A stretch of DNA of 64,000 nt from Escherichia coli (GTDB lineage: Bacteria; Pseudomonadota; Gammaproteobacteria; Enterobacterales; Enterobacteriaceae). Shown in pieces: positions 3,849 through 50,051 of the stretch. The position numbers were made by a program, and so were the translations under genes. How positions within the stretch are numbered: the stretch's first letter is position 1; each line of letters starts with the position of its first letter. Under the pieces are notes generated by a model. That model ran no database searches. It saw nothing but the letters and a program-made list of their open reading frames with translations, and was not told the origin of the DNA. The stretch is taken from NCBI RefSeq assembly GCF_017348835.2, contig NZ_CP071375.1, one strand, 5' to 3'.

Positions 3849-3850
3849 TA

Positions 3851-3886
3851 AAAAGGCCAGTCAGTAATGTTACTGCCTGGCCTTTA
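3851..3886. terminator. Bidirectional intrinsic terminator between convergent yfeW and yfeX
   Basis: Hairpin ggccagtcagtaa..ttactgcctggcc flanked by an A-run upstream and T-run downstream. Confidence 0.6.
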
Positions 3887-3905
3887 ATCAATGAATCAGA
3901 AACGC

Positions 3906-6398: not shown

Positions 6399-6611
6399 GG
6401 TATTCGTTACCTTTTTGCGGGTTAAAAGGCTGATTATGGCGTGAACGGTCGAATTAGCCAATATCTGACGAAAATCGGTTGAAAAAGTGGCATAATGGGG
6501 AGTTGTCAACTATTGAAATGAAAAGTAAAACAATTCTCAACAGCAAACGGTCGTAACGGATTACGCGATACGATATAACATCTGGAACTTTATTATTACA
6601 ACTCAGGCCGT

Positions 6612-7481
6612 ATGAGCACTTTTAAACCACTAAAAACACTCACTTCGCGCCGCCAGGTGCTGAAAGCCGGTTTGGCTGCCCTGACGTTGTCAGGAATGTC
6701 GCAAGCCATCGCCAAAGACGAACCTTTAAAAACCAGCAACGGACACAGCAAGCCGAAAGCCAAAAAATCTGGCGGCAAACGTGTCGTTGTTCTCGATCCA
6801 GGCCACGGCGGAATTGATACCGGAGCGATCGGGCGCAACGGTTCGAAAGAAAAACATGTGGTGCTGGCGATTGCTAAAAACGTCCGTTCCATTTTGCGTA
6901 ATCATGGGATTGATGCGCGTTTAACGCGTTCTGGCGATACGTTTATCCCACTTTACGATCGCGTTGAAATCGCCCATAAACATGGCGCAGATCTGTTTAT
7001 GTCAATTCATGCCGATGGCTTTACCAACCCGAAAGCTGCCGGTGCTTCGGTATTTGCCCTCTCTAACCGTGGGGCAAGTAGCGCAATGGCGAAATACCTG
7101 TCTGAACGCGAAAACCGCGCCGATGAAGTTGCCGGTAAAAAGGCGACTGACAAGGATCACCTATTGCAGCAAGTGCTGTTTGATCTGGTGCAAACCGATA
7201 CTATTAAAAACAGCCTGACGCTCGGCTCGCATATTCTGAAAAAGATTAAGCCGGTGCATAAACTGCACAGCCGCAACACCGAACAAGCCGCGTTTGTGGT
7301 GTTGAAATCGCCGTCGGTTCCTTCGGTGCTGGTGGAAACCTCGTTTATCACCAACCCAGAAGAAGAGCGACTGTTAGGCACGGCGGCGTTTCGTCAGAAA
7401 ATCGCCACAGCGATTGCTGAAGGCGTGATCAGTTATTTCCACTGGTTCGACAACCAGAAAGCACATTCGAAAAAGCGATAA
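6612..7481 (+). CDS. amiA: N-acetylmuramoyl-L-alanine amidase A (Tat-exported)
   Basis: 289-aa ORF with twin-arginine signal SRRQVLKAGLAALTL and amidase_3 domain. Confidence 0.93.
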   Translation: MSTFKPLKTLTSRRQVLKAGLAALTLSGMSQAIAKDEPLKTSNGHSKPKAKKSGGKRVVVLDPGHGGIDTGAIGRNGSKEKHVVLAIAKNVRSILRNHGIDARLTRSGDTFIPLYDRVEIAHKHGADLFMSIHADGFTNPKAAGASVFALSNRGASSAMAKYLSERENRADEVAGKKATDKDHLLQQVLFDLVQTDTIKNSLTLGSHILKKIKPVHKLHSRNTEQAAFVVLKSPSVPSVLVETSFITNPEEERLLGTAAFRQKIATAIAEGVISYFHWFDNQKAHSKKR

Positions 7482-8384
<903 letters not shown>

Positions 8385-8389
8385 CTCCC

Positions 8390-9442
8390 TCACCCCCATT
8401 CCCGCATCCGCTGATGCAACGTCAACGACGGCTTCTCGGCAAACAGCTGCTGGTAATCCGTGGCAAATTGCCCCAGATGCCAGAATCCCCACTGCATGGC
8501 GGCGTCTTTTACCGTTGTGCTTTGCGACCACGGGCTTATCAGTTCGCGGCGTACGGCGTTCAGGCGAATGCGTTTCAGCCACGCGTTTGGGCCAATGCCT
8601 AAAATAGCGTGAAACGCGTTTTGTAGCGTGCGGCGGCTGACATGCAGTTGATTACACAAATCCAGCACCGTCACCGGTTCGGACATGTTTTCCAGCACAT
8701 ATTCACGGGCGCGGGAAAGTAATCTACGGTAACTCTGATGACTGATGCTTTCCGCCGTCACCATTGGTTGCGCTTCTTCCAGCATCGCCCCCATCGCCAT
8801 TAGCAAATTATCCCCCAGCACTTTTCGCACTGCAGGCTGATGAAGATTTTCCGGGTTCTCGCAAAACGTCGCCAGCGCCTGTTGGACAAAGCCCCACAGC
8901 GCGGCTTTATGCTGCTCTTTCACTTCCAGCGCCGACTGGCTACGCAACATATGTAATACCCGATCCGGATTATGCAAAAAGTTAGCCTGACGGGTGATGA
9001 CATCTTCAGAAAGCACTACGCCCAGGATCGTGTAATCGTCCGGCGTACTTAATTCAAACTCGGTTCCACCAGGGCGCGTCGCTATTTCTGCGCTTCCCAG
9101 ACATTGCGAACCGATAAATCCCTGCTCACCGCGCGTCGCCGGAATGCCAAACCAGAACGAGTTCGGCCAGACCAGACACGACTGACGCAGCGCCAGACCG
9201 GTGTATTCACGAAAAACCTGAATATCATCGAGTAGAATTTCCGTAAATTCACCATGAAACTTGCCCGGATGCAGCTGATCGTAAATCTGCTGCCAGGCGG
9301 TAATCGTTAAAGCATGTTCATAGACATCCGTTGTCTGTCGTTGATGAACATTATCCACTTCGACCTTCGGCGTGAGCTTCAGGTTTTCGGGTAAGGGCTC
9401 ATGATAAAGATGGTGCAAATTGGCTGTACGGGTCTTTTTCAT
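8390..9442 (-). CDS. eutR: AraC-family transcriptional activator of the eut operon
   Basis: 350-aa ORF with C-terminal AraC HTH; last gene of eut cluster. Confidence 0.92.
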
Positions 9443-9487
9443 GATGTTAATGCCGGGTGTTGTAGGACACCCGGCACCTCCGACAGG

Positions 9488-9988
9488 TTAATGGGGCTTG
9501 AGACGATAACGACTACTGCGTTTACGTAACGTCCCGGCAGAAAAGAGCTGTTCGAGCGCATTTCTGGCTTTTTCCAGCGGCCAGCCAAAGTGGGCAGCCA
9601 CTTCTCCTGCCGTCATTCCCTGACGTACTGATGTTAACAGCGCCAACAACTCGTCAGCAGATTCCGCGACGATAACTGGCGCGTCGGGTTCCTGTACGGG
9701 TTGCTTCGGCTGGCGGTTAAAGCCAGTAACCAGCCACTGGGTGTCATCGTCTGGCCGACCGATCTCCTTACGGCTGATGACACGCCCGGTACGCATCGCG
9801 GCAGCACAACCTGCGTCCAGCGCAGCACGACACGCCGCCAGATCGCCTTCCACCACCAGCGTTAAGCGACCAGGGTCAAGCACTTCGTGACTGAGCAGAC
9901 GAACGTTAGCTGCTTTGAGCATGGCATCCGCTGCATCTATCGCAGCGACCATGCCGTCCACTTCCAGCAATCCCAGTGCATTGATCAT
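9488..9988 (-). CDS. eutK: Microcompartment shell protein EutK
   Basis: BMC domain N-terminus (MINALGLLEVDGM...); ATG 9986-9988 with GGAGG RBS. Confidence 0.9.
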   Translation of the reverse strand: MINALGLLEVDGMVAAIDAADAMLKAANVRLLSHEVLDPGRLTLVVEGDLAACRAALDAGCAAAMRTGRVISRKEIGRPDDDTQWLVTGFNRQPKQPVQEPDAPVIVAESADELLALLTSVRQGMTAGEVAAHFGWPLEKARNALEQLFSAGTLRKRSSRYRLKPH

Positions 9989-10000
9989 CGGCAACCTCCA

Positions 10001-10660
10001 TTACGCACGCTGGATTGGATTACGCGCGATTTCCAGCACTGCATCGGTAAAGGCGTTACAGGCCGCTTTACACGCTGCCTGGCTACCGGTTAAAAATGCT
10101 GCCGAGTAGTTAGTTTCAGACGGTGGCGGGACATAGGTCACCAGCTGTACGTCGGCAGATTTCAACGCTGCATCAATGCCGTAGGTCGCTTCCAGCGGCG
10201 GTGCCACCAGATACGCCATCGGATCGCCAAGCGTGATCCCGGCGGTTGATGAGAGATAAGAACCGGTACGCGAAACTACATGTGCCAGGAATGCCGTATC
10301 TTGCGCATCATTAGCCCACTGGAAAGCAGCGCCATTTTCAATATGCGCAACCATCGCATCCAGACCTGCACGCACTTCCGCCGGGTTTGGCCCACCAAGC
10401 ATAATCAGCACTTCACCGGCAGTCGGTGACGGGCCGTGTGCAGCGCCCGCATACAGCGAGCGGCCATACACCACTTCGACCATCGCCTGTTTGGTTGCTT
10501 CATCAGCGGCAATGTAGGTGACGTCATCGGAATCAGCAGAAATCAGCCCGAGGCTACGAATATGCGGCGGCAATTTCAGTTCACGCGCAAATTCGGCGTT
10601 AACGGAGGCAATCACCCGCATGGCGGTTACCGACGGTCGAATCAAATCTAAAGCTGGCAT
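10001..10660 (-). CDS. eutL: Microcompartment shell protein EutL (tandem BMC domain)
   Basis: 219-aa ORF in conserved eut position. Confidence 0.92.
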
Positions 10661-11577: not shown

Positions 11578-12939
11578 TCAGAAGAACAGTGACGGATCGC
11601 CCGCCCGTTTGGTCAGGCGACCGTTTGCCATAATGCCCATGCTTTCCAGCCAGCGTTCAAACTCCGGTGACGGGCGCAGGTTGAGTAACTGACGCACAGT
11701 GGCGGTATCGTGGAATGCGGTGGTCTGGTAATTGAGCATGATGTCATCACCCAGCGGCATCCCCATGATGTAGTTGCAGCCTGCGGTGGCGAGCAGGATC
11801 ATCAGGTTTTCGTTGAGGTTCTGGTCAGCGTCAGCGTGGTTGGTGTAACAGCAGTCACAGCCCATAGAGATGCCGCTCAGCTTGCCCATAAAGTGATCTT
11901 CTAAGCCCGCACGAATAATCTGGCGGTCATTGTAGAGATACTCCGGCCCAATAAAGCCGACCACGGTGTTGACGATAAACGGATCGTAATGACGCGCCAG
12001 CCCGTAGTTACGCGCTTCCATGGTCACCTGGTCTGCGCCGTAGTTGGCACCCGCCGACAGCGCCGAACCTTGCCCGGTTTCGAAGTAGAGGCAGTTTTCC
12101 CCGGCGATACGGTTGAACTCTGCACCCACTGCGCGCGCTTCGTCGAGCATCGCCAGTTCCACGCCAAACTCTTTCAGCCCTTTTTCACTGCCACAGATAC
12201 TCTGGAAAATCAGCCCGCCTGGTGCGCCACGACGAATCGCTTCGATCTGGGTGGTGACGTGCGCCAGTACGCAGCCCTGAGTTGGGATGTTGAATTTGTC
12301 GATCACGCCATAGATGGTGTCCAGCACGCGGCTTAAGTTTTCCACGTCGTCAGTTACCGGGTTGACGCCGATCACCGCATCGCCCACCCCGAAGGAAAGC
12401 CCTTCGTAGATTTGCGCGGCGATACTTTGCACGTCGTCACGGGTGTCATTTGGCTGCAAACGGGCGCTAAAGGTGCCCGGAATACCGATGGTGGTATTGG
12501 CCTTTTTGATTACCGGCATTTTCTTCGCGCCGTAGATCAGGTCCGCGTTGGAGCAAATCTTCGCTACCGCCGCGACCACTTCCGAGGTCAGCCCTTTGCG
12601 GGTAAAGGCAATGTCGTCCACGCTGGTTTCATCGCTCAGCACATACTCACGCAGTTCGCTGATGCTCCAGTTTTTAATCTGGTTGTAGGCCGTTTCGTTA
12701 ACATCGTCCTGAATCAGCCGCGTCACGCAGTCATCTTCATAGGCAATCACCGGATTATTGCGGATGTCCGCTACGGTCATTTCCGACAACACCTGCTTTG
12801 CTGCCACGCGCTCCTGTGAGCTTGCCGCTGCAACGCCCGCCAGCACATCCCCCGAACGCAGTTCGTTGGCTTTAGCCAGCACCTCTTTTACATCCTTAAA
12901 CTGATATACATTGCCGAACAATGTGGTCTTTAGTTTCAT
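11578..12939 (-). CDS. eutB: Ethanolamine ammonia-lyase large subunit
   Basis: ORF trimmed to ATG 12937-12939 (MKLKTTLFGNVYQF...); 453 aa. Confidence 0.93.
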   Translation of the reverse strand: MKLKTTLFGNVYQFKDVKEVLAKANELRSGDVLAGVAAASSQERVAAKQVLSEMTVADIRNNPVIAYEDDCVTRLIQDDVNETAYNQIKNWSISELREYVLSDETSVDDIAFTRKGLTSEVVAAVAKICSNADLIYGAKKMPVIKKANTTIGIPGTFSARLQPNDTRDDVQSIAAQIYEGLSFGVGDAVIGVNPVTDDVENLSRVLDTIYGVIDKFNIPTQGCVLAHVTTQIEAIRRGAPGGLIFQSICGSEKGLKEFGVELAMLDEARAVGAEFNRIAGENCLYFETGQGSALSAGANYGADQVTMEARNYGLARHYDPFIVNTVVGFIGPEYLYNDRQIIRAGLEDHFMGKLSGISMGCDCCYTNHADADQNLNENLMILLATAGCNYIMGMPLGDDIMLNYQTTAFHDTATVRQLLNLRPSPEFERWLESMGIMANGRLTKRAGDPSLFF

Positions 12940-13050
12940 AAGTCGTTCCCTCAGGAAGAAGTGATGAGTGACATTTTTCACAGCCTTCAAACAATTCTAT
13001 TTCATCGTTAACCCTTGTCCTGTAAGGTAATTACCTTAGTACGCCCGCTA

Positions 13051-13087
13051 TTCATCCTGCCGAACGCAACCGAACGCGCCGGATACA
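13051..13087. repeat. Left att-like imperfect direct repeat (ttcatcctgcc..N17..ccggataca)
   Basis: Shares the 11-bp and 9-bp arms at the same spacing with 22476-22511. Confidence 0.5.
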
Positions 13088-13127
13088 TGAGCGGGGTTAT
13101 CGAGTCGTTAGATCGAGGTATCCGGTT

Positions 13128-14333
13128 TTGAGCAAGACACCACTGACAGCAAAGGCCATAGAGGCCGCACAACCGCAGGACAAGCCCTATAAACTCACCG
13201 ATTCACAGACACCTGGCCTGTTTTTGCTGGTCCATCCCAACGGCAGCAAATACTGGCGATTCCGGTATTGGATAGACAAGAAGGAGCGGTTACAGGCTAT
13301 TGGGGTGTATCCGCTGATTAGCCTCAAGGAAGCCCGCAAACGCGCCACAGAGAGCCGTTTACTGATAGCCCAGGGAATTGACCCAATGGATTTGGCACGC
13401 AAGGAGAAAGCCATTGATGCTCTTAATGCTATCGCCAGTTTTAAAGCTGTAGCAGAAGACTGGATGGCTACCAAGGTGAGCGGATGGAGTGAGAGCTATA
13501 CAAAGCAGGTCAGATCGGCACTAGAGAAAGATGTTTACCCCGTGCTAGGTAAGCGGTCGATAGTGGATATAACGGCCCGTGACGTGCTGGCGTTACTACA
13601 GAAAAAGGAGCGCACCGCACCGGAACAAGCCAGGAAATTACGCCAGCGTATCGGGGAGATCTTCAAATTTGCCGTTATCACTGAACTGGTTAACCGGAAT
13701 CCGGTTGCAGATCTGGATACGGCACTGAAAGCCAGACGCCCAGGCCATAACGCGTGGATACCGATTAATGAAATTCCGGCCTTCTACAAAGCCCTTGAGA
13801 GAGCTGGGAGCGTTCAGATTCAGACGGCAATACTTTTGCTCATCCTCACAGCTTTGAGGACGGCAGAATTGCGCCTGATGCGCTGGGAATGGGTAGATCT
13901 GCAATCGGCAACAATCACATTGCCCGCTGAAGTCATGAAGGCCCGCCGACCGCATGTTGTCCCGCTATCCCGGCAGGCGGTCGAGCTATTACAGGACCAG
14001 TTTACCCGCAGCGGATACAGTGCTTTCGTCTTTCCTGGCCGATTCATGGACAAGCCACTTTCAGCCAGTGCCATCCTTAAAGCCCTGGAGCGTATCGGAT
14101 ACAAGTCGATAGCCACAGGCCACGGCTGGCGGACCACCTTTTCAACGGCGCTTAATGAGTCCGGCAGGTACTCACCAGACTGGATCGAAATCCAACTGGC
14201 CCACGTTCCGAAAGGCGTGCGCGGTGTTTATAACCAGGCGGCCTACCTGAAGCAACGACGGGCCATGATGCAGGATTATAGCGACTGTATTGATTCAATA
14301 CTGGCTGGTGACGGTAATCCACTTGAACCGTGA
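13128..14333 (+). CDS. intZ: P4-family tyrosine site-specific integrase
   Basis: 401-aa ORF; AP2-like N-terminal domain; C-terminal catalytic region with R..HGWR..Y signature (HGWRTTFSTAL, RGVYNQAAY); first island gene beside the left repeat. Confidence 0.88.
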   Translation: MSKTPLTAKAIEAAQPQDKPYKLTDSQTPGLFLLVHPNGSKYWRFRYWIDKKERLQAIGVYPLISLKEARKRATESRLLIAQGIDPMDLARKEKAIDALNAIASFKAVAEDWMATKVSGWSESYTKQVRSALEKDVYPVLGKRSIVDITARDVLALLQKKERTAPEQARKLRQRIGEIFKFAVITELVNRNPVADLDTALKARRPGHNAWIPINEIPAFYKALERAGSVQIQTAILLLILTALRTAELRLMRWEWVDLQSATITLPAEVMKARRPHVVPLSRQAVELLQDQFTRSGYSAFVFPGRFMDKPLSASAILKALERIGYKSIATGHGWRTTFSTALNESGRYSPDWIEIQLAHVPKGVRGVYNQAAYLKQRRAMMQDYSDCIDSILAGDGNPLEP

Positions 14334-14455
14334 ACTATAAGGCCGGGTTTATACTCAATATCGACGGTTGAAGCGCTCAAAAAACAACCGTGACAACCGT
14401 CACAAATATGCAATGTCAATGATCTGAATCAATAAATTGCCAATTCTTCGTTTCC

Positions 14456-14470
14456 ACTTTCGAATGAAAG
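14456..14470. repeat. 15-bp motif actttcgaatgaaag, copy 1 (internal inverted repeat ctttc/gaaag)
   Basis: Exact duplicate of 14591-14605. Confidence 0.7.
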
Positions 14471-14590
14471 CAAGATGCAGAAAAATAAATCACCATGAAA
14501 TCATGTACTTATTAATTTTGACCAAATGGTCCAAAATATCCTCGGTGAATCCATGCTTGCCACAGCCAGATGATTAATATTTAACCCATG

Positions 14591-14605
14591 ACTTTCGAAT
14601 GAAAG
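14591..14605. repeat. 15-bp motif actttcgaatgaaag, copy 2
   Basis: Exact duplicate of 14456-14470, 135 bp away, in AT-rich non-coding DNA. Confidence 0.7.
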
Positions 14606-14733
14606 TAAATTGATAAAAAAGTCAGTGTACACTAACTAAATCGAATATTTTTTGCGCTATGTTTGAATGATAATTGAGCAAAACTTTCGCAAGGTGTGAC
14701 GATGTGAGTAATTAATTTTAACTCTACAATAAA

Positions 14734-14791
14734 CCCATCCCGACAGGGATGGTACCTGGAGCGGAGCGAGAGGGACCATCCCCCTGTTTTT
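14734..14791 (+). terminator. Nested hairpins followed by a T-run (terminator-like; may also act on the minus strand)
   Basis: cccatcccgacagggatgg hairpin overlapping ggatggtacc..N16..gggaccatcc stem, then ccctgttttt. Confidence 0.45.
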
Positions 14792-14884
14792 AGTCTTTTG
14801 AAGTTAGTTTTTTAAGGGATTAAATAATTTTGCCTCAAATGAGACCACACCATACAAGGCCAAAAACAATCAGTATTGCGTGGA

Positions 14885-15400
14885 TCAGGCTGGTTTTTTA
14901 ACTATATACCCCGTATGCCAAGGATTCTGATCGCGCGGCATCGGGTCCGCCTTGATAGACTCATAAAACTTATCAGCCATCTCAGCCACAAACTGTACAG
15001 AGGATTCGAACTCAGCGTTTTTGTGTGCGGGAGGAAACCAGAAGTCTAACACGCCAGCATTTCTATTTTTACATACAGCGTATATAAGATAAGCATCAGA
15101 TGTAGGGGTAACTTTTTCGAAACCACCGGGACCATAACGACCAGTAGACCAGTCATCCCAGCATTGTTCTGTCCCGCTATAGCCGTACTGATTGGTATAA
15201 AGACCAATATTTACATGGACTTTACGTAAGTGGATAGGATATACACACGGGGGTTTATGGAAAAGAGTATCCTTTCCAAAATCAGGATGATGTCCATATC
15301 TCCAATGATAAATAAACGAATCCTTAAAGCTCTTTAATTCATCGTTTGTTTTAAACTTATTATCACTGTAGACCTTACCAATAAATTCATTCTGGACCAT
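14885..15400 (-). CDS. Hypothetical protein (171 aa), distal gene of two-gene island cassette
   Basis: ORF 14885-15403; ATG at 15398-15400; overlaps upstream gene by 14 nt; Trp/Tyr/His-rich, no family recognised. Confidence 0.6.
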   Translation of the reverse strand: MVQNEFIGKVYSDNKFKTNDELKSFKDSFIYHWRYGHHPDFGKDTLFHKPPCVYPIHLRKVHVNIGLYTNQYGYSGTEQCWDDWSTGRYGPGGFEKVTPTSDAYLIYAVCKNRNAGVLDFWFPPAHKNAEFESSVQFVAEMADKFYESIKADPMPRDQNPWHTGYIVKKPA

Positions 15401-15734
15401 CAAAGCTTACACTCTTTAAGCGTTCTTCTCGTGAATCGAATAAATCTTTTGATAAATCACACGCTTGTGTGAACGTCATTTTTTTTACTCGTGGTACAGC
15501 CATAGGCGAGGCCGCATTCATCACTTTGTTTTCTTCGTGATCGAGAGTAGCAGTGTAGCGAAACATGACACTTTTACCGCGCACCAACTGGTATCCTAGT
15601 CGATACGCTAACGCGTCAAGATGCGTCAGACGATTTGTTTTACGCAAGCCAGTCATAGCTTTTGGCTTACGAGTGCGCACAGAAAGGGATTTCCCTTCTC
15701 GCTTAGTCGCAAACAAAGTAACTATTTTTGACAT
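15387..15734 (-). CDS. Hypothetical basic protein (115 aa), proximal gene of two-gene island cassette
   Basis: ATG 15732-15734 preceded by GGAGA RBS; Lys/Arg-rich; stop overlaps start of downstream gene. Confidence 0.55.
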   Translation of the reverse strand: MSKIVTLFATKREGKSLSVRTRKPKAMTGLRKTNRLTHLDALAYRLGYQLVRGKSVMFRYTATLDHEENKVMNAASPMAVPRVKKMTFTQACDLSKDLFDSREERLKSVSFDGPE

Positions 15735-16290
15735 GGTATCTCCTGACATCAATCTGCTAAGGCCATTGTGCCTTGTTTGAATAGTAAACTATTCGCCCAA
15801 TCTACACCAGTGATTTTCTTGACGCCAATAGTAAAGGCAGCATTGCCCACCACAGGCAGACAATGAGACTTCAGATAGCGCACCTTCTATCGCGCACGCG
15901 CTCAATAAAACCAACGACACCGCCATCCTGCCTGACCGATGTTTTTAACCAGCGTATACAGAGAAACAGACAACAGCATGAAATCAGCGTATATCCAGGT
16001 GCAGACGGCACTATCACACAACGCACAGCAGGCTGAGGTGAACACTCAAGCAACTTTATCCCCGCCACCGACCACCGCAAACTATCATGACCGTGCCAAA
16101 TTCAAAAGGAATGGCCCATATAACGCGATGAACACACATAAGCGCTACACTTGCTTACCTGAAAACTTCACAGCGTCACAGCGCGTTTTAGACACGTTAA
16201 AATTAATGAGATTTCATTAAATTTTCACCAGACACCGGAACAAGCCTATAAATCAAAAATGAATTACCGACATGCGCCGCTGGCGTTCAC

Positions 16291-16310
16291 AGGAAGAATC
16301 AATAACTTAG
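16291..16310. repeat. Imperfect direct repeat aggaagaatcaataacttag, copy 1
   Basis: 17/20 identical to 16391-16410, exactly 100 bp downstream. Confidence 0.55.
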
Positions 16311-16390
16311 GCCAATGGCGAAAGTTAAACAAAATCAAGAACTTGCAGAAATGCAGGATGAAGCAGCCGATGTGCCCCGTTGGATTTTAC

Positions 16391-16410
16391 CAGAAGAATC
16401 AACAAGTTAG
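16391..16410. repeat. Imperfect direct repeat cagaagaatcaacaagttag, copy 2
   Basis: See 16291-16310. Confidence 0.55.
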
Positions 16411-16662
16411 ACTCGGTGATTTCACCGACTCCTGCCGGACTACTGACCAGATCGAACCATTCCCCAAATTTGGGGAGAGCAAACCACACGCAGATCCTGC
16501 CAGGCTATTTCATCCCACCGCATCACGTATTTGCACACTTCCCCGCTGACGTGCTCATTTTGATAACGAGTTACCCGCTAGCCCTTGCCACATCACCATT
16601 TGTCGCGCTTTGACTAAATTAGCGACGTGCCTGTTATAGCGATACGCTAGTTATGCAGAAAG

Positions 16663-16682
16663 CGCGACATATCCAGCAACCA
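16663..16682. repeat. Exact 20-bp direct repeat cgcgacatatccagcaacca, copy 1
   Basis: Identical to 16790-16809; lies just upstream of the 16707 ORF start. Confidence 0.7.
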
Positions 16683-16706
16683 TGCACCCTACAGAGGAAT
16701 TGAATC

Positions 16707-17159
16707 ATGCGAGACATAGACTGGTCAGCTATCCCTTTCGATGATTTACCGCCCTGGCATCTGGACTGGGACGTAGACCAACGCGAAAACGCGACATATC
16801 CAGCAACCACCAGCATTACAGCGATGCGCCCCGTAAAGCCTAAGAAATACCAGGCAACCGACCTGATAGCTCACCTCAAAGCTATTGGCGGCGTATTTAC
16901 CGGAAGCAAAGACACGCTTGCACATGAAGTATGGCCCCGGAAGACGCCAGCGGGTCGAACCGTTTTACGCTTACTGACCGAACTGTCAGACAACGGCGAC
17001 GCTGTAGTGATTAACCGTGGTCGTTGTGGCGTGGAAGTTATTCTGACGCCGAAGAACAGGGCACAGACGCCTGAATTAAGCGCACCCAAGCAAATGCATA
17101 GCCAAAAATTAAGTCCAGCAGAACGCGTTATATCGCTTTTAAATGGCATCGGATTTTAA
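16707..17159 (+). CDS. Hypothetical protein (150 aa)
   Basis: ORF with GAGG RBS about 10 nt upstream of the ATG; non-repetitive composition; no family recognised. Confidence 0.5.
   Translation: MRDIDWSAIPFDDLPPWHLDWDVDQRENATYPATTSITAMRPVKPKKYQATDLIAHLKAIGGVFTGSKDTLAHEVWPRKTPAGRTVLRLLTELSDNGDAVVINRGRCGVEVILTPKNRAQTPELSAPKQMHSQKLSPAERVISLLNGIGF
16790..16809. repeat. Exact 20-bp direct repeat cgcgacatatccagcaacca, copy 2
   Basis: Inside the 5' end of the 16707 ORF; 127 bp from copy 1. Confidence 0.7.
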
Positions 17160-17185
17160 TTAATTTTGATGTGGTAATTGCAGGC

Positions 17186-17213
17186 AAAAAAATCCCGCCG
17201 GAGAAAGCGGGGA
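17186..17213 (-). terminator. Intrinsic terminator-like hairpin oriented for the minus strand
   Basis: Minus-strand reading ccccgctttctccggcggg followed by U7 (plus strand aaaaaaa-tcccgccggagaaagcgggga). Confidence 0.5.
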
Positions 17214-17446
17214 AGTGAAATCAATCGTTGTAGTTATAGATCACATTTTGGAGTTGAGGATGGCTAATCCTCGCTAATATTATCGCGCCGTTATGTGATG
17301 GGCGCAATTATTTCTTACTAATTAAAAGTTTTGTAAATATTACAGAATATCCCTTTTCACTATATGGTAAAAGATGTGAAACAGGGACATGAGGAATATA
17401 ATATTAAGTATCAACAGTAATGTTGGTCTTTAATTTCATTCAGGGC

Positions 17447-17490
17447 GCGGTGAGGGTTTTCTCCATATTTTTCCTCACCGCTACTTTTTC
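17447..17490 (+). terminator. Terminator/attenuator-like hairpin immediately upstream of the AlpA-like gene
   Basis: gcggtgagg..N17..cctcaccgc stem then tactttttc; a third complementary segment gaggtgag overlaps the RBS of the next gene. Confidence 0.45.
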
Positions 17491-17501
17491 GAGGTGAGAA
17501 C

Positions 17502-17693
17502 ATGAATGATAGCGAATTAATGACGGTGAACGAGGTAGCCGCTTTATTCGGCGTTACCCGTCGGACAATATTCCGGTGGATGAACAAGATTAAAGGCTGG
17601 CCCGTCCCGGTCAGTCCGATTGGCTCAAGAATTAAGTTTATCCGATCTGAGATTTTGGAATTCTATAAAAACAAAGGCGCTCGCCACCAATGA
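17502..17693 (+). CDS. AlpA/Xis-like small DNA-binding regulator (phage transcriptional regulator family)
   Basis: 63-aa ORF with HTH-like segment VNEVAALFGVTRRTIFRWM; GAGGTGA RBS. Confidence 0.65.
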   Translation: MNDSELMTVNEVAALFGVTRRTIFRWMNKIKGWPVPVSPIGSRIKFIRSEILEFYKNKGARHQ

Positions 17694-17769
17694 AAACAGC
17701 TACTGAGATTATCAAATAACCTATTGATTTAAAAAGCTAGCTACCGCAATTTCTGAAGGAATAGGCAGC

Positions 17770-18096
17770 ATGAAAATCAAAGCAAACACAATTAAAGAAA
17801 TAACATCAATCAAAGTAAAAGGAGCAGATGCCATGCATTCATTAGATAGTTATTTTCAGCGCACGACAGCCCCTAAATCAGCCGCCCAGGAACGCCGTGA
17901 GGAATTCCAGGAAAAAGTGATGCGTTCTGCTGATTATATTGCGGACAAGTTCGCGGAAACGGTTCGGCCACTTGTTGATGAAGTAGCTGATAAACTTCAG
18001 TCTGAAATGCCGGAAGACATGGAAGGCACTGCAAAGGCGCGACTCCTTTTTGAATTAAGTCGTCGTTTCGGCGTGTCAATAAGCACTTTTAAATAA
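17770..18096 (+). CDS. Hypothetical phage protein (108 aa)
   Basis: ORF in co-directional island gene string; no family recognised. Confidence 0.5.
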   Translation: MKIKANTIKEITSIKVKGADAMHSLDSYFQRTTAPKSAAQERREEFQEKVMRSADYIADKFAETVRPLVDEVADKLQSEMPEDMEGTAKARLLFELSRRFGVSISTFK

Positions 18097-18113
18097 TCGG
18101 AGGAGGAAAGACA

Positions 18114-18656
18114 ATGGACGCATTTGATGTACTGACAAACAAAGGCGATGAACTGGTAGCACAGCGTGATAAAACCGCCAACGAAGGGGAACGCGCACTG
18201 TTAAATAAGCAGATTAAAGCGATCCGTATGGCCCAGTTTAAATTAATCAGCAATGAAGTTATCGAAAAAATTAAACCGCAGATCCCACAAATCGTTGCTG
18301 ACGCTATTAAAGCCGCCGGACTGGAGAAACGCATTGCCGGGCTGAAAACGAACGCAGAGAAAATGGAGATGCACAAACAGAGCGGTGCTCCGACTCCGGA
18401 TGAGTACTTCTCACCGGATGCTGAGTTTATGGCGCAGGTTGAGGAACGTCTGGGTAGCTGTCTCACCGAGGAACAGTGTCGCTATTTTGATGGAGTGGAT
18501 AGTTCGGCAGGTATTGACCTGAACTCGTATTTCGGTCGTGAAATTGAGCATTTTGATGCCGCCCCGTCTATGCCGGAGCCAGAACCAGAAATGGCCGCCG
18601 ATCCTGAAGCTGAGCAACGGAAACGCGTATTCAATGCGATAGGGATTCGGTACTGA
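18114..18656 (+). CDS. Hypothetical phage protein (180 aa), acidic C-terminus
   Basis: ORF preceded by GGAGGAAAG RBS (18092-18108); no family recognised. Confidence 0.55.
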   Translation: MDAFDVLTNKGDELVAQRDKTANEGERALLNKQIKAIRMAQFKLISNEVIEKIKPQIPQIVADAIKAAGLEKRIAGLKTNAEKMEMHKQSGAPTPDEYFSPDAEFMAQVEERLGSCLTEEQCRYFDGVDSSAGIDLNSYFGREIEHFDAAPSMPEPEPEMAADPEAEQRKRVFNAIGIRY

Positions 18657-18707
18657 TCGGATAAAAGAAAGCCGGGAATTACCCCGGCTGACTTAACAAT
18701 GTGACCA

Positions 18708-19082
18708 ATGAACAAATCGGACAAGACAAACAGGATAAGCAGTCTCGAAACAATGTTCGGGAACTATATTAGCACAAGTCCGGAGAAAATCATCATGTTG
18801 GCACTACGCATCATGCAGGGCATCGCTAAGACCCTCGCAGAACATGTCTTAGACCTGAAACATTCGCCACTGAGCAAACAGGCCATGAAGCGCCAAACGC
18901 TTCGTCTGTGGGCTGAATATTCGCTTGGAACTATCAATAAAATCATCGACATGAAATCGGGGCCGAGCAACCAGAGCGCGGAGGAAATGGAGTTCATCAG
19001 GCGTTTAATTCTCATTCGCAGAGACATTCATAGCCAGTTACACAGCGTGGGAATCGATATTAATGATGGGACGGGCGATTAA
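18708..19082 (+). CDS. Hypothetical phage protein (124 aa)
   Basis: ORF in co-directional gene string. Confidence 0.45.
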   Translation: MNKSDKTNRISSLETMFGNYISTSPEKIIMLALRIMQGIAKTLAEHVLDLKHSPLSKQAMKRQTLRLWAEYSLGTINKIIDMKSGPSNQSAEEMEFIRRLILIRRDIHSQLHSVGIDINDGTGD

Positions 19083-19120
19083 TTTTCGGACAAGTACTAT
19101 GCGCGCGCGAGGAGCTGAAC

Positions 19121-19351
19121 ATGAAGCAAGATATTGCAGACAGGCTGGAGATACTCGAAGGCCAGCGGGCAGAAGCGAAACAACTACGTAAGCAGGCCAG
19201 AAGAGCGCACAGGAACTACGAAGCAGAATCACTGACCGCTTTCATCAACTTCACAAACCGTTGCATCCTGGAGTGTTACAGGGAGGATGCAGAAAACTGG
19301 CTGGATTCATTGCCAGAACAGACTCTGCATGAACTGAACGGCGACCAGTAA
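19121..19351 (+). CDS. Hypothetical phage protein (76 aa)
   Basis: ORF with GAGGAG RBS upstream. Confidence 0.45.
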   Translation: MKQDIADRLEILEGQRAEAKQLRKQARRAHRNYEAESLTAFINFTNRCILECYREDAENWLDSLPEQTLHELNGDQ

Positions 19352-19638
19352 ATAAATCCAGTACGTTTCCCGCAGTGCGCATAACGTACATTATGTGAAA
19401 AACGATATGGATATATATCAGTCTGACTTCAATGAAGAAAACGGACTTCCAGCATCAACCACAAAGAAGTATGGCTAATGCAGCTTTATAAGCCATTGAT
19501 TCTATTAAACGATATTTTTTGTGATTGGTTGAAGCAAACCAAAACACGATGCCACTGAAGCGTTAATAAACTGTTTCAATGTGAAATTATCAGAGTAAAG
19601 AACAATTTGGAGGGTCCGCAAACGCGGATAACAATATC

Positions 19639-21819
19639 ATGAGTGGAAATCTCGGGACCATATACTACGAGGTCGATGCCCGCACTGGGAAACTTCTTAT
19701 CGCGCAACAGCAGGCGGAAGAGGCGTTCGATCGCATTGAACGAGGAGCGCGGAAGGCTGATAGCGGCGTCAAAAAGTTAAATACGCAGATGACTAAAACA
19801 TCAGCCGCAGTCAAAACCAACCTTTCCCCGGCAATCCGTAACGCATCATACCAGATCGCAGACCTTGCCACTCAATTGCAGATGGGCGGTAATGCGCTTC
19901 AGGCGTTCGCTGTGCAGGGTGCGCAGTTATTAGCTGGCTTTGGCACGATGGGCGCGGTAGCTGGCGCGGTGCTGGCTATCGCTGGCGCTATGGGTGGAAG
20001 CCTGGCACAAGGCGCTGATAGTGCAGCCGGATCGGTTGAGTATCTGGACAAGGCGATCACCAAACTGAACGAGGTCATAGCTGTAAATGAACAGGGCGTG
20101 ACGGTGATGAGTGATAGTTACGCCAGACTTTCTAAGGTTAACGCTGAAGTAGCGAAACAGATGCGGAACATGGCTGAAATTCAGGCAATTGCAGCACTGC
20201 GTGACCTGAAAGAACAGGCAAGCCAGGCACAGGGGGAAATGTCGTCATTCTGGCGCAGCTTGCAGGGTGGTAAAGCTGACGCAGCAGCAGCAGCACAGGC
20301 ACTTGATGATCTTGGAATCACAACCAACGACTACAAAGAGGCGATAGCCATACTGAACGCCAATCAGCCGGATACACAGGCGCAAATGGCAACGCTAGCT
20401 AAGTCCGTGATGTACATAGGCGAGGAATACAACCTGACAAACCAGCAAGCCTACGAGTTCATCCGAGCACTAAATAGGGCCGCGACAACGAGAACGCCGG
20501 AAGCCATGCAGGAACTATCGGGCTTCATGCAGGTATTGCTACAGGACACCGAAAACGGTAACGAGGCATTCCGTGAACTGGCTATCAAATTCGTTGATGC
20601 ACAAACCAAAGGCGCAATGCTGGAAGACCAACTAAACCGACTGAAAGGCGCTATCAGTGACGCAGCCACAGAAGCCAGAAACGCCAATTTTACCACTATG
20701 CTCAACACCGTCGCCGCACGCCTGGCAGCCATTGAGCAAGGTTGGGAGGCAGGCGTTAGGATGCAGATGAAAGCCCAGGGCTACACTGAAGAGCAGATCG
20801 ATGAATATGTGAACATGGAAACGGCGTACCGTGATGCAAAAGCCGCTTTGGACGAGAAGAATAAGGCCGACCGTGAAGCTATTGCGCTATCCAAACGCCA
20901 GGCCGCAGAAGCAGCCCGCAAGGCAAAACAGGAAGAAGCTGAAGCACAACGCAAGGCCAAACAGTTAGCCGCGCAGAAGGAGCAGGCAGGACGCTTTACG
21001 CAGCAAGTAATGACGGAATACCTGACGACCGTAGATCCGGCAACAGGCAAGGCGTTTAACCCTGCCGCACAAGTAGAAATGCAGGAGCAGCAGAAGAAAG
21101 CGGCGCTGGATAAATACAGACAGTTGGGCGTCCTGGATGAACAGCAGTACCAGAACACGCTAACCGCCATCCAGAAAACCGCGTCAATGCGCCGCCAGCA
21201 AATCATCAAAGACGAGGCCGACACGTTATTCAACAATCAGCAACAGTTGATCGGCACATTTGGCGATTTCTTCGGTGAACTGTCTGGAGTCATAGCAGAC
21301 GGTGCAGGTGAGCAAAACGCGGCATATCAAGCGCTATTTGCTGTGCAGAAGGGTTTTGTATTGGCATCAGCAGCTTTAAGCCTTCAGAAAGCGCTTGCTG
21401 AGGCAAACGCCTTGCCTTTCCCGGCTAATCTTCCGGCCTATGCGCAAGCTATGTCAGCAGGCACGCAGATCATTTCAGCTATTCGTGGAATAGCTTTCGG
21501 TGGCGGACGCTACAACGGCGGCGCGGTTGGTGCTGGCAACCTGTACCGCGTGGGTGAACACGGTAAGCCTGAGATATTCAAGGCGAACAATGGCAGCCAG
21601 TACATGATCCCAGGTGATAACGGTCGCGTGATAAGTAATCGTGACATTGGCGGCGGTGGCGGCGTAACAATCAACAGCCCGATCACCATTAACACTACGA
21701 ATGGCTTCAGTGATGAAGACTCAAGGCGTCTTGAGGAAGCGATGAAGCGCGTAGCTATGGGCGTTTGCAGGCAGGAGTCAACCAGACCGGGAGGAATGTT
21801 AGCCCCGCGCCGTCGTTAA
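19639..21819 (+). CDS. Phage tail tape-measure-like protein (lambdoid H-like), orphan
   Basis: 726-aa Ala/Gln-rich coiled-coil ORF; C-terminal GNLYR motif and Gly-rich tail as in lambda H; no neighbouring tail genes. Confidence 0.6.
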   Translation: MSGNLGTIYYEVDARTGKLLIAQQQAEEAFDRIERGARKADSGVKKLNTQMTKTSAAVKTNLSPAIRNASYQIADLATQLQMGGNALQAFAVQGAQLLAGFGTMGAVAGAVLAIAGAMGGSLAQGADSAAGSVEYLDKAITKLNEVIAVNEQGVTVMSDSYARLSKVNAEVAKQMRNMAEIQAIAALRDLKEQASQAQGEMSSFWRSLQGGKADAAAAAQALDDLGITTNDYKEAIAILNANQPDTQAQMATLAKSVMYIGEEYNLTNQQAYEFIRALNRAATTRTPEAMQELSGFMQVLLQDTENGNEAFRELAIKFVDAQTKGAMLEDQLNRLKGAISDAATEARNANFTTMLNTVAARLAAIEQGWEAGVRMQMKAQGYTEEQIDEYVNMETAYRDAKAALDEKNKADREAIALSKRQAAEAARKAKQEEAEAQRKAKQLAAQKEQAGRFTQQVMTEYLTTVDPATGKAFNPAAQVEMQEQQKKAALDKYRQLGVLDEQQYQNTLTAIQKTASMRRQQIIKDEADTLFNNQQQLIGTFGDFFGELSGVIADGAGEQNAAYQALFAVQKGFVLASAALSLQKALAEANALPFPANLPAYAQAMSAGTQIISAIRGIAFGGGRYNGGAVGAGNLYRVGEHGKPEIFKANNGSQYMIPGDNGRVISNRDIGGGGGVTINSPITINTTNGFSDEDSRRLEEAMKRVAMGVCRQESTRPGGMLAPRRR

Positions 21820-38614: not shown

Positions 38615-38620
38615 TGGTGA

Positions 38621-38710
38621 TCGCCGGACGCTGATCGCCGGATGCTGATTGCCGGATGCGACGCTGACGCGTCTTATCCGGCCTACAGCGTCTTATCCGG
38701 TCTACATGTC
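38621..38710. repeat. REP/BIME cluster downstream of tktB
   Basis: Repeated gccggatgc...cgtcttatccggcctaca units. Confidence 0.6.
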
Positions 38711-38723
38711 CCCGCTATTTTGT

Positions 38724-47698: not shown

Positions 47699-47702
47699 GC
47701 AA

Positions 47703-47737
47703 TAAAAAAGGCGACATGCCAATGTGTCGCCTTTTTC
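47703..47737. terminator. Intrinsic terminator after acrD (also downstream of ypfM on the other strand)
   Basis: aaaaaa-ggcgacatgccaatgtgtcgcc-ttttt. Confidence 0.65.
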
Positions 47738-47796
47738 AACTTTCCGATTAAGAACTTGCTCAGCAGGTTCTTGCTGTTTGTACTTTGTCTCAGGAA

Positions 47797-49952: not shown

Positions 49953-49960
49953 GCTAAGTG

Positions 49961-50040
49961 GCCGGATAAGGCGTTAACGCCGCATCCGGCAATGGTGAAC
50001 GATGCCTGATACGACGCATCACGCGTCTTATCAGGCCTGG
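49961..50040. repeat. REP element
   Basis: gccggataaggcgttaacgccgcatccggca and partner. Confidence 0.5.
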
Positions 50041-50051
50041 TAATCTGTCTT

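Follow-up and report, generated by a model that had tools for sequence, protein, structure and literature searches.

The 64,000-nt stretch of Escherichia coli DNA analysed here (the window) contains the convergent genes hemF and eutR, whose stop codons face each other across five base pairs (Table 1). On the + strand the junction reads ...AGG GAT TGG GTG TAA CTCCC TCA CCC CCA TTC CCG..., in which TCA (8390-8392) is the eutR stop TGA read from the opposite strand. Both gene identities are established by full-length matches to NCBIfam equivalog profiles with the C-termini included, HemF to NF003727 (472.8 bits, cut-off 297; profile 2-294 of 294) and EutR to NF007522 (790 bits, cut-off 319; profile 1-350 of 350). 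The gene directly upstream of hemF, amiA, is presumably the first of an amiA-hemF transcription unit. The window is the reverse complement of E. coli PE164 NZ_CP114128.1 1302522-1366521 with 0 mismatches in 64,000 bases, and RefSeq places an identical 5-bp gap between hemF and eutR in PE164 and in K-12 MG1655 (b2436 end 2554124, b2437 start 2554130). Of 5,426 complete E. coli genomes, 5,395 match a junction-centred probe of 145 nt without interruption. A preliminary description of this DNA had given the spacing of the convergent stops as 5 bp, which is correct according to the sequence, the ORF list, the equivalog matches and the RefSeq annotation of both PE164 and K-12. The gap also withstands re-annotation, which that description had considered able to widen it, because it is defined by two stop codons and changes of start codon leave it untouched.

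Table 1. Positions of genes, structures and candidate Rho-loading stretches around the junction (window coordinates), and of two insertions at the same site in other genomes (contig coordinates)
Feature	Position	Strand	Description
amiA	6612-7481	+	Directly upstream of hemF, 3-bp spacing; NCBIfam NF007652 equivalog, 580 bits; RefSeq
hemF	7485-8384	+	Oxygen-dependent coproporphyrinogen III oxidase, 299 aa; stop TAA 8382-8384; ORF list, NCBIfam, RefSeq
Spacer CTCCC	8385-8389		5 bp separating the hemF and eutR stop codons; read from sequence
eutR	8390-9442	-	AraC-family activator, last gene of the eut operon, 350 aa; stop TGA 8392-8390; NCBIfam, RefSeq
Coding-tail inverted repeat	8371-8403		Formed by the four C-terminal codons of each gene, R-D-W-V in hemF and R-E-W-G in eutR; both stops and the spacer lie in the loop
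Second small hairpin, GCAUCCGCUGAUGC	8404-8417	+	Directly 3' of the first hairpin in hemF read-through RNA; folding
First C-rich, G-poor stretch, candidate rut	8385-8462	+	C/G 1.94, 18 YC dimers in 78 nt; above the 95th percentile (1.75)
Second, stronger C-rich, G-poor stretch, candidate rut	8745-8822	+	C/G 2.58, 20 YC dimers; above the 99th percentile (2.27)
Weak 5-bp hairpin with T-rich tail, GCGGCTTTATGCTGC TCTTTCACTT	8901-8925	+	Consensus scan; directly after the equivalent of the published Rho peak, 8900
Insert in E. coli 2020CK-00188	L066:3071-4904		DUF1963 protein gene and a hypothetical gene
Insert in E. whittamii	L006:3560-5343		TacA-like antitoxin (PF08681, E = 2.7e-25), 171-aa protein, 223-aa ORF

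An island of ~9.6 kb with an intZ integrase (window ~11,600-21,400; PE164 1344042-1353394) separates eutA from eutB and so interrupts the eut operon. It sits where K-12 has the cryptic prophage CPZ-55 but differs in cargo, which here includes a YafO-family toxin preceded by its partner ORF, an HTH regulator and a hypothetical protein of 726 aa.

The 5-bp gap is real yet ordinary and belongs to a common class of E. coli junctions. In a sample of 36 convergent pairs, comprising the 7 of the window and 29 from three arbitrary 50-kb stretches of K-12 (150 kb), roughly a quarter (10/36) were separated by 5 bp or less or overlapped, including 9 of the 29 K-12 pairs. These were cueR/ybbJ and yebW/pphA (both 0 bp), emtA/ycgR and yebB/ruvC (both 1 bp), pdeD/yoaE (3 bp), the overlapping mntP/rlmA and exoX/ptrB (both -4), and two prophage pairs (-29 and -63). 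The seven named pairs likewise lie tail to tail with a gap into which an intergenic terminator cannot fit; they were compared with hemF/eutR by gap only, and at hemF/eutR the coding tails additionally form a palindrome over the stops. Convergent gaps in the window measure 5, 57, 98, 99, 109, 517 and 551 bp, and hemF/eutR is the sole junction of the seven without an intergenic hairpin element. Two of the short gaps (49953-50051 and 38615-38723) are occupied by REP/BIME units, and two others (47699-47796 and 3849-3905) hold hairpins bordered by A and T runs. A search of the whole window with Rfam found nothing at the hemF/eutR junction. The sole Rfam match at gathering score, naRNA4 (RF02564, 85.7 bits; 49,960-50,037, +), is REP-derived and coincides with a two-unit REP/BIME in the convergent gap between ypfH and ypfN.

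Spacer variation among relatives and insertions in E. coli

A scan for EutR with one genome per species returned 63 loci. Genera in which hemF is convergent to eutR include Escherichia, Citrobacter, the Klebsiella oxytoca group, Salmonella arizonae, Pseudocitrobacter, Pluralibacter and Intestinirhabdus, and among the more distant eutR-bearing genera of the 63 loci hemF was not convergent to eutR. HemF and EutR are constant in length across genera and the spacer between them is variable. A 5-bp spacer recurs in three further loci, two from divergent Escherichia lineages (L004 and L005) and one (L003, DXKH01000140.1) from a MAG labelled Citrobacter sp. with an E. coli-like EutR (99.7% identical). 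The latter, together with L059-L061, which are labelled Bacillus hominis and Prolixibacteraceae, carries an E. coli-like eutR at 95-100% protein identity and appears to be mis-binned or contaminating Escherichia DNA. Pluralibacter, with 8 bp, and Intestinirhabdus, with 19 bp, have short spacers free of REP elements.

The spacers of 23 Citrobacter, Klebsiella, Salmonella and Pseudocitrobacter loci are 54-150 bp long and consist almost wholly of one to three REP-type palindromic units, for example GCCTGATGGCGCTACGCTTATCAGGCCTAC and GTAGGCCGGATAAGACGC...GCGTCGCATCCGGCA. These units were assigned to REP by direct similarity to the E. coli REP sites of other convergent gaps (92% over 37 nt to window 38650-38686); the Rfam model naRNA4, searched against the relatives' loci, scored the spacers below the gathering threshold and did not report them at E <= 0.01. 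The copy number and order of REP units vary among species at this fixed junction (L007-L040), and REP turnover is therefore traceable across genera. REPs are the customary occupants of convergent junctions: in E. coli they are reported from 207 of 704 convergent intergenic regions, with a proposed role in terminating transcription in both directions and in blocking decay (bioRxiv 10.64898/2026.03.23.713779). This arrangement of REP/BIME at convergent genes is shared by the 54-150-bp hemF-eutR spacers of Citrobacter, Klebsiella and Salmonella arizonae, whereas the junction of the window is too short for such an element and the REP/BIME core GCC[G/T]GAT ... ATC[C/A]GGC is absent in or beside 8385-8389. 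By parsimony over the genera Citrobacter, Klebsiella and Salmonella, an ancestral REP spacer would have been lost in Escherichia, a reading weakened by the fast turnover of REP elements and by the 8- and 19-bp REP-free gaps of two other genera.

The same position has also received insertions. The hemF/eutR junction is split in about 30 of the 5,426 complete E. coli genomes, and two inserts of ~1.8 kb that were inspected, one in E. coli 2020CK-00188 and one in E. whittamii, are independent and both lie exactly between the hemF and eutR stops (Table 1). The 171-aa protein of the E. whittamii insert has a weak GNAT match below the Pfam cut-off.

Fate of transcripts crossing the junction

No intrinsic terminator was found near the junction in a consensus scan of both strands from 6400 to 10200, which returned just two weak sites, fewer than shuffled sequence gave and neither of them at the junction. 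The scan likewise found none on the - strand from the eutR stop (8389) through hemF and amiA to 6400. Of the features of an intrinsic terminator, the coding-tail hairpin supplies a G+C-rich stem-loop, and on neither strand does a U run follow directly 3' of the stem: beyond it comes GCAUCCGCUGAUGC in the + RNA and UGACCUUAAUAAACU in the - RNA. The earlier statement that the junction leaves no room for terminators thus stands for a canonical terminator, for which 5 bp are too few and the scan is empty, but does not extend to every RNA structure, as the coding tails themselves fold as a hairpin over the junction.

Read-through and antisense transcripts of E. coli reportedly undergo Rho-dependent termination, an observation attributed to Peters and colleagues in 2012. 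At hemF, the RNA past the stop codon contains two C-rich, G-poor stretches that are candidate rut sites (Table 1; C/G percentiles were taken over 78-nt windows of the 64-kb window). A published K-12 data set includes a region of Rho termination, in the antisense class and assigned to eutR, with its best position at NC_000913.3 2554640 (+), a Rho score of 4.50 and p = 8.9e-8 (Adams et al. 2021, PMC7815308 Supplementary file 2). Reads of 3' ends upstream and downstream of this site numbered 78 and 18 without bicyclomycin and 102 and 106 with it (PMC7815308). The untreated counts are low, and the peak position is approximate since the Rho score is calculated from 800 nt upstream and downstream. 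K-12 and the window align over 621 nt at 99% identity with zero indels, and K-12 2554640 therefore corresponds to window position 8900, 516 nt beyond the hemF stop. The second, stronger C-rich stretch sits 80-155 nt upstream of this position. Untranslated, rut-like RNA ahead of the release zone, as characterises a Rho-dependent terminator, is thus present in both stretches past the hemF stop.

As the region is antisense to eutR and sensitive to bicyclomycin, hemF transcripts enter eutR antisense and end inside it. The preliminary description had proposed that the two transcripts must overlap antisense or terminate within the partner gene, and in the hemF direction the K-12 data bear this out. 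All experimental termination data come from K-12, a strain other than that of the window. The site shares with the published class of Rho-terminated read-through and antisense RNAs (Adams et al. 2021, PMC7815308) an untranslated antisense RNA past a stop codon, C-rich and G-poor stretches and bicyclomycin sensitivity; it is itself an entry of the published table and differs in no substantive respect, with rut and release sites that are only approximate. Many further regions in that table are classed as antisense, for example 514988 (+), which is antisense to qmcA and downstream of cueR (PMC7815308). Given such regions, this one beyond the cueR/ybbJ gap of 0 bp, the hemF case follows a general rule. 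A weak hairpin with a T-rich tail directly after position 8900 is not significant alone, because the scan that detected it gave fewer sites than shuffled sequence, and it could either help Rho by pausing polymerase or, at a score resolution of 800 nt, lie there by chance. A separate, strong Rho region at K-12 2558053 (+), antisense to eutB, gave 523 and 24 reads untreated and 371 and 399 with bicyclomycin (Rho score 23.4; PMC7815308). It corresponds to window ~12,313 and implies a far more abundant antisense transcript in the eut operon, distinct from the hemF read-through.

Other published resources were searched for 3' ends at the junction. The curated Term-seq table of Adams et al. (PMC7815308) assigns no 3' end to hemF, amiA or eutR and lists none within K-12 2554000-2554599, which includes the junction, and a stable, hairpin-protected 3' end of hemF is therefore unconfirmed. 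In the supplements of the SMRT-Cappable-seq study (PMC6131387) hemF, eutR and amiA are absent, the sole hemF entry in the supplements of PMC10349824 is cyanobacterial, and a full-text literature search for hemF together with eutR returned nothing that bears on the junction.

We consider it likely that two unrelated transcription units meet tail to tail here in an ordinary way, with no terminator set aside for either, and that read-through hemF RNA, and by extension eutR RNA, is ended by Rho inside the partner gene. Polymerase arriving from amiA-hemF would pass the hemF stop and continue antisense to eutR, and the RNA past that stop, being untranslated, would expose the two C-rich, G-poor stretches. 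Rho may load on these stretches and free the hemF transcript around 8900, no more than ~0.5 kb into the sequence antisense to eutR. Transcripts of eut and eutR would in turn pass the eutR stop, enter hemF antisense and be ended there by Rho, which we infer because the - strand through hemF and amiA is without an intrinsic terminator. The eutR read-through RNA is moderately C-rich at +1 to +98 (C/G about 1.6) and becomes strongly C-rich only at +701 to +838. Exonucleases acting in the 3'-to-5' direction would probably trim both RNAs back toward the coding-tail hairpin, which may thereby protect their ends. Dar & Sorek 2018 (PMC6061677, abstract) describe Rho-dependent transcripts whose steady-state ends lie just past stable stem-loops that lack U-tracts and are followed directly by rut sites. 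The hairpin-then-C-rich layout at the hemF 3' end fits this pattern, a correspondence that is unconfirmed given the absent Term-seq end and the modest stability of the hairpin on the + strand.

The coding-tail hairpin and other readings of the junction

The inverted repeat spanning the two stop codons folds in a 43-nt window (8366-8408) with a minimum free energy of -13.4 kcal/mol as + RNA and -16.6 kcal/mol as - RNA, which ranks among the best 9% and the best 2.4%, respectively, of all 43-nt windows of the 64 kb; for folds of 151 nt around the junction, z was -1.51 on the + strand and -2.89 on the - strand. A hairpin over the junction is kept, with differing sequences, in K-12 and in the divergent Escherichia lineages L004 and L005, where EutR ends in E-L-G and the hairpin lies in a shifted register.

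This structure could be taken as a compact bidirectional terminator or pause at which converging polymerases collide and release, such that both transcripts end at the junction and overlap by a few tens of nucleotides. The position of the palindrome over both stops, the stability of the - strand fold in both the 43-nt and the 151-nt windows and the persistence of the hairpin in divergent Escherichia lineages all agree with such a function, and bidirectional terminators that lack a U-tract and act independently of Rho have been reported between convergent genes in hundreds of cases (Ju et al. 2019, cited through bioRxiv 10.1101/2022.10.23.513370). With those SEnd-seq terminators and the collision model, as presented there, the junction shares a hairpin-forming palindrome between converging genes; it differs from them in that the hairpin lies inside the coding tails rather than in intergenic DNA and in that published Rho-sensitive read-through extends beyond it. 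The + strand 3' ends past the junction are bicyclomycin-sensitive and peak about 516 nt further on, so polymerases pass the hairpin, which on this strand is unremarkable in both folds. The lack of a Term-seq 3' end within K-12 2554000-2554599 (PMC7815308) also speaks against membership of the SEnd-seq class, and collision requires both genes to be active, whereas eut is conditional and its operon is split by an island here and in K-12. Finally, the inverted repeat may be a by-product of two proteins that happen to have similar C-terminal peptides, [D/E]-W-[V/G]. We therefore regard termination of both transcripts at the hairpin as unlikely.

A further proposal gives the palindrome a selected, dual use: as a bidirectional 3' stem-loop replacing the REP elements of sister genera it would define or protect both mRNA 3' ends, and residual hemF read-through, kept short by Rho, would restrain eutR in antisense and so tie the use of ethanolamine, which depends on B12, to aerobic haem synthesis. 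We offer this as a long shot.

Another regulatory reading is an excludon-like arrangement, in which a putative antisense RNA from hemF read-through, or transcriptional interference, would act against eutR, so that aerobic haem synthesis and the B12-dependent ethanolamine regulon would be inversely coupled; we hold this to be very improbable. Antisense transcription does cover the 3' 0.5 kb of eutR in K-12 (PMC7815308), the Rho peak implying an antisense overlap of about this length, and terminator-less convergent genes are one described excludon layout (PMC7154746). There is also a parallel in Listeria, where an antisense RNA controls pocR, another AraC-family regulator of a B12-dependent pathway (PMC7154746), and EutR has a weak match to the NCBIfam PocR model (E = 2.4e-4). 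Against this, Rho limits the overlap of the hemF read-through with eutR, and tight junctions are common between functionally unrelated pairs. In close relatives REP elements separate the two genes, and insertions do so in about 30 of the 5,426 E. coli genomes, so the tight coupling of hemF and eutR is not conserved. Some evidence thus counts against both the collision terminator and the excludon-like arrangement, and neither has positive evidence. An artefact of annotation or sequence, whether a misassigned stop, a frameshift or faulty assembly, can be dismissed, as the stops were read directly, the equivalog profiles match to the last residues, the protein lengths are the same in other genera and the junction is identical or nearly so in thousands of independent complete genomes.

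Standard annotation and the published Rho data set already cover the hemF/eutR junction, and its termination by Rho in the hemF direction is already known. New here are the REP-filled junction in Citrobacter, Klebsiella and Salmonella as against none in Escherichia, and the coding-tail hairpin, of moderate stability, across both stops. Taken alone the junction is of little importance, a clean textbook case of E. coli convergent genes with no terminator between them, and its interest would rise to moderate only with a regulatory role for the antisense overlap or for the coding-tail hairpin. One orthologous spacer nevertheless ranges from 5 bp through 150 bp of REP to 1.8 kb of inserted genes with the stop codons unmoved, and this variation provides a background for studying REP function and antisense transcription.
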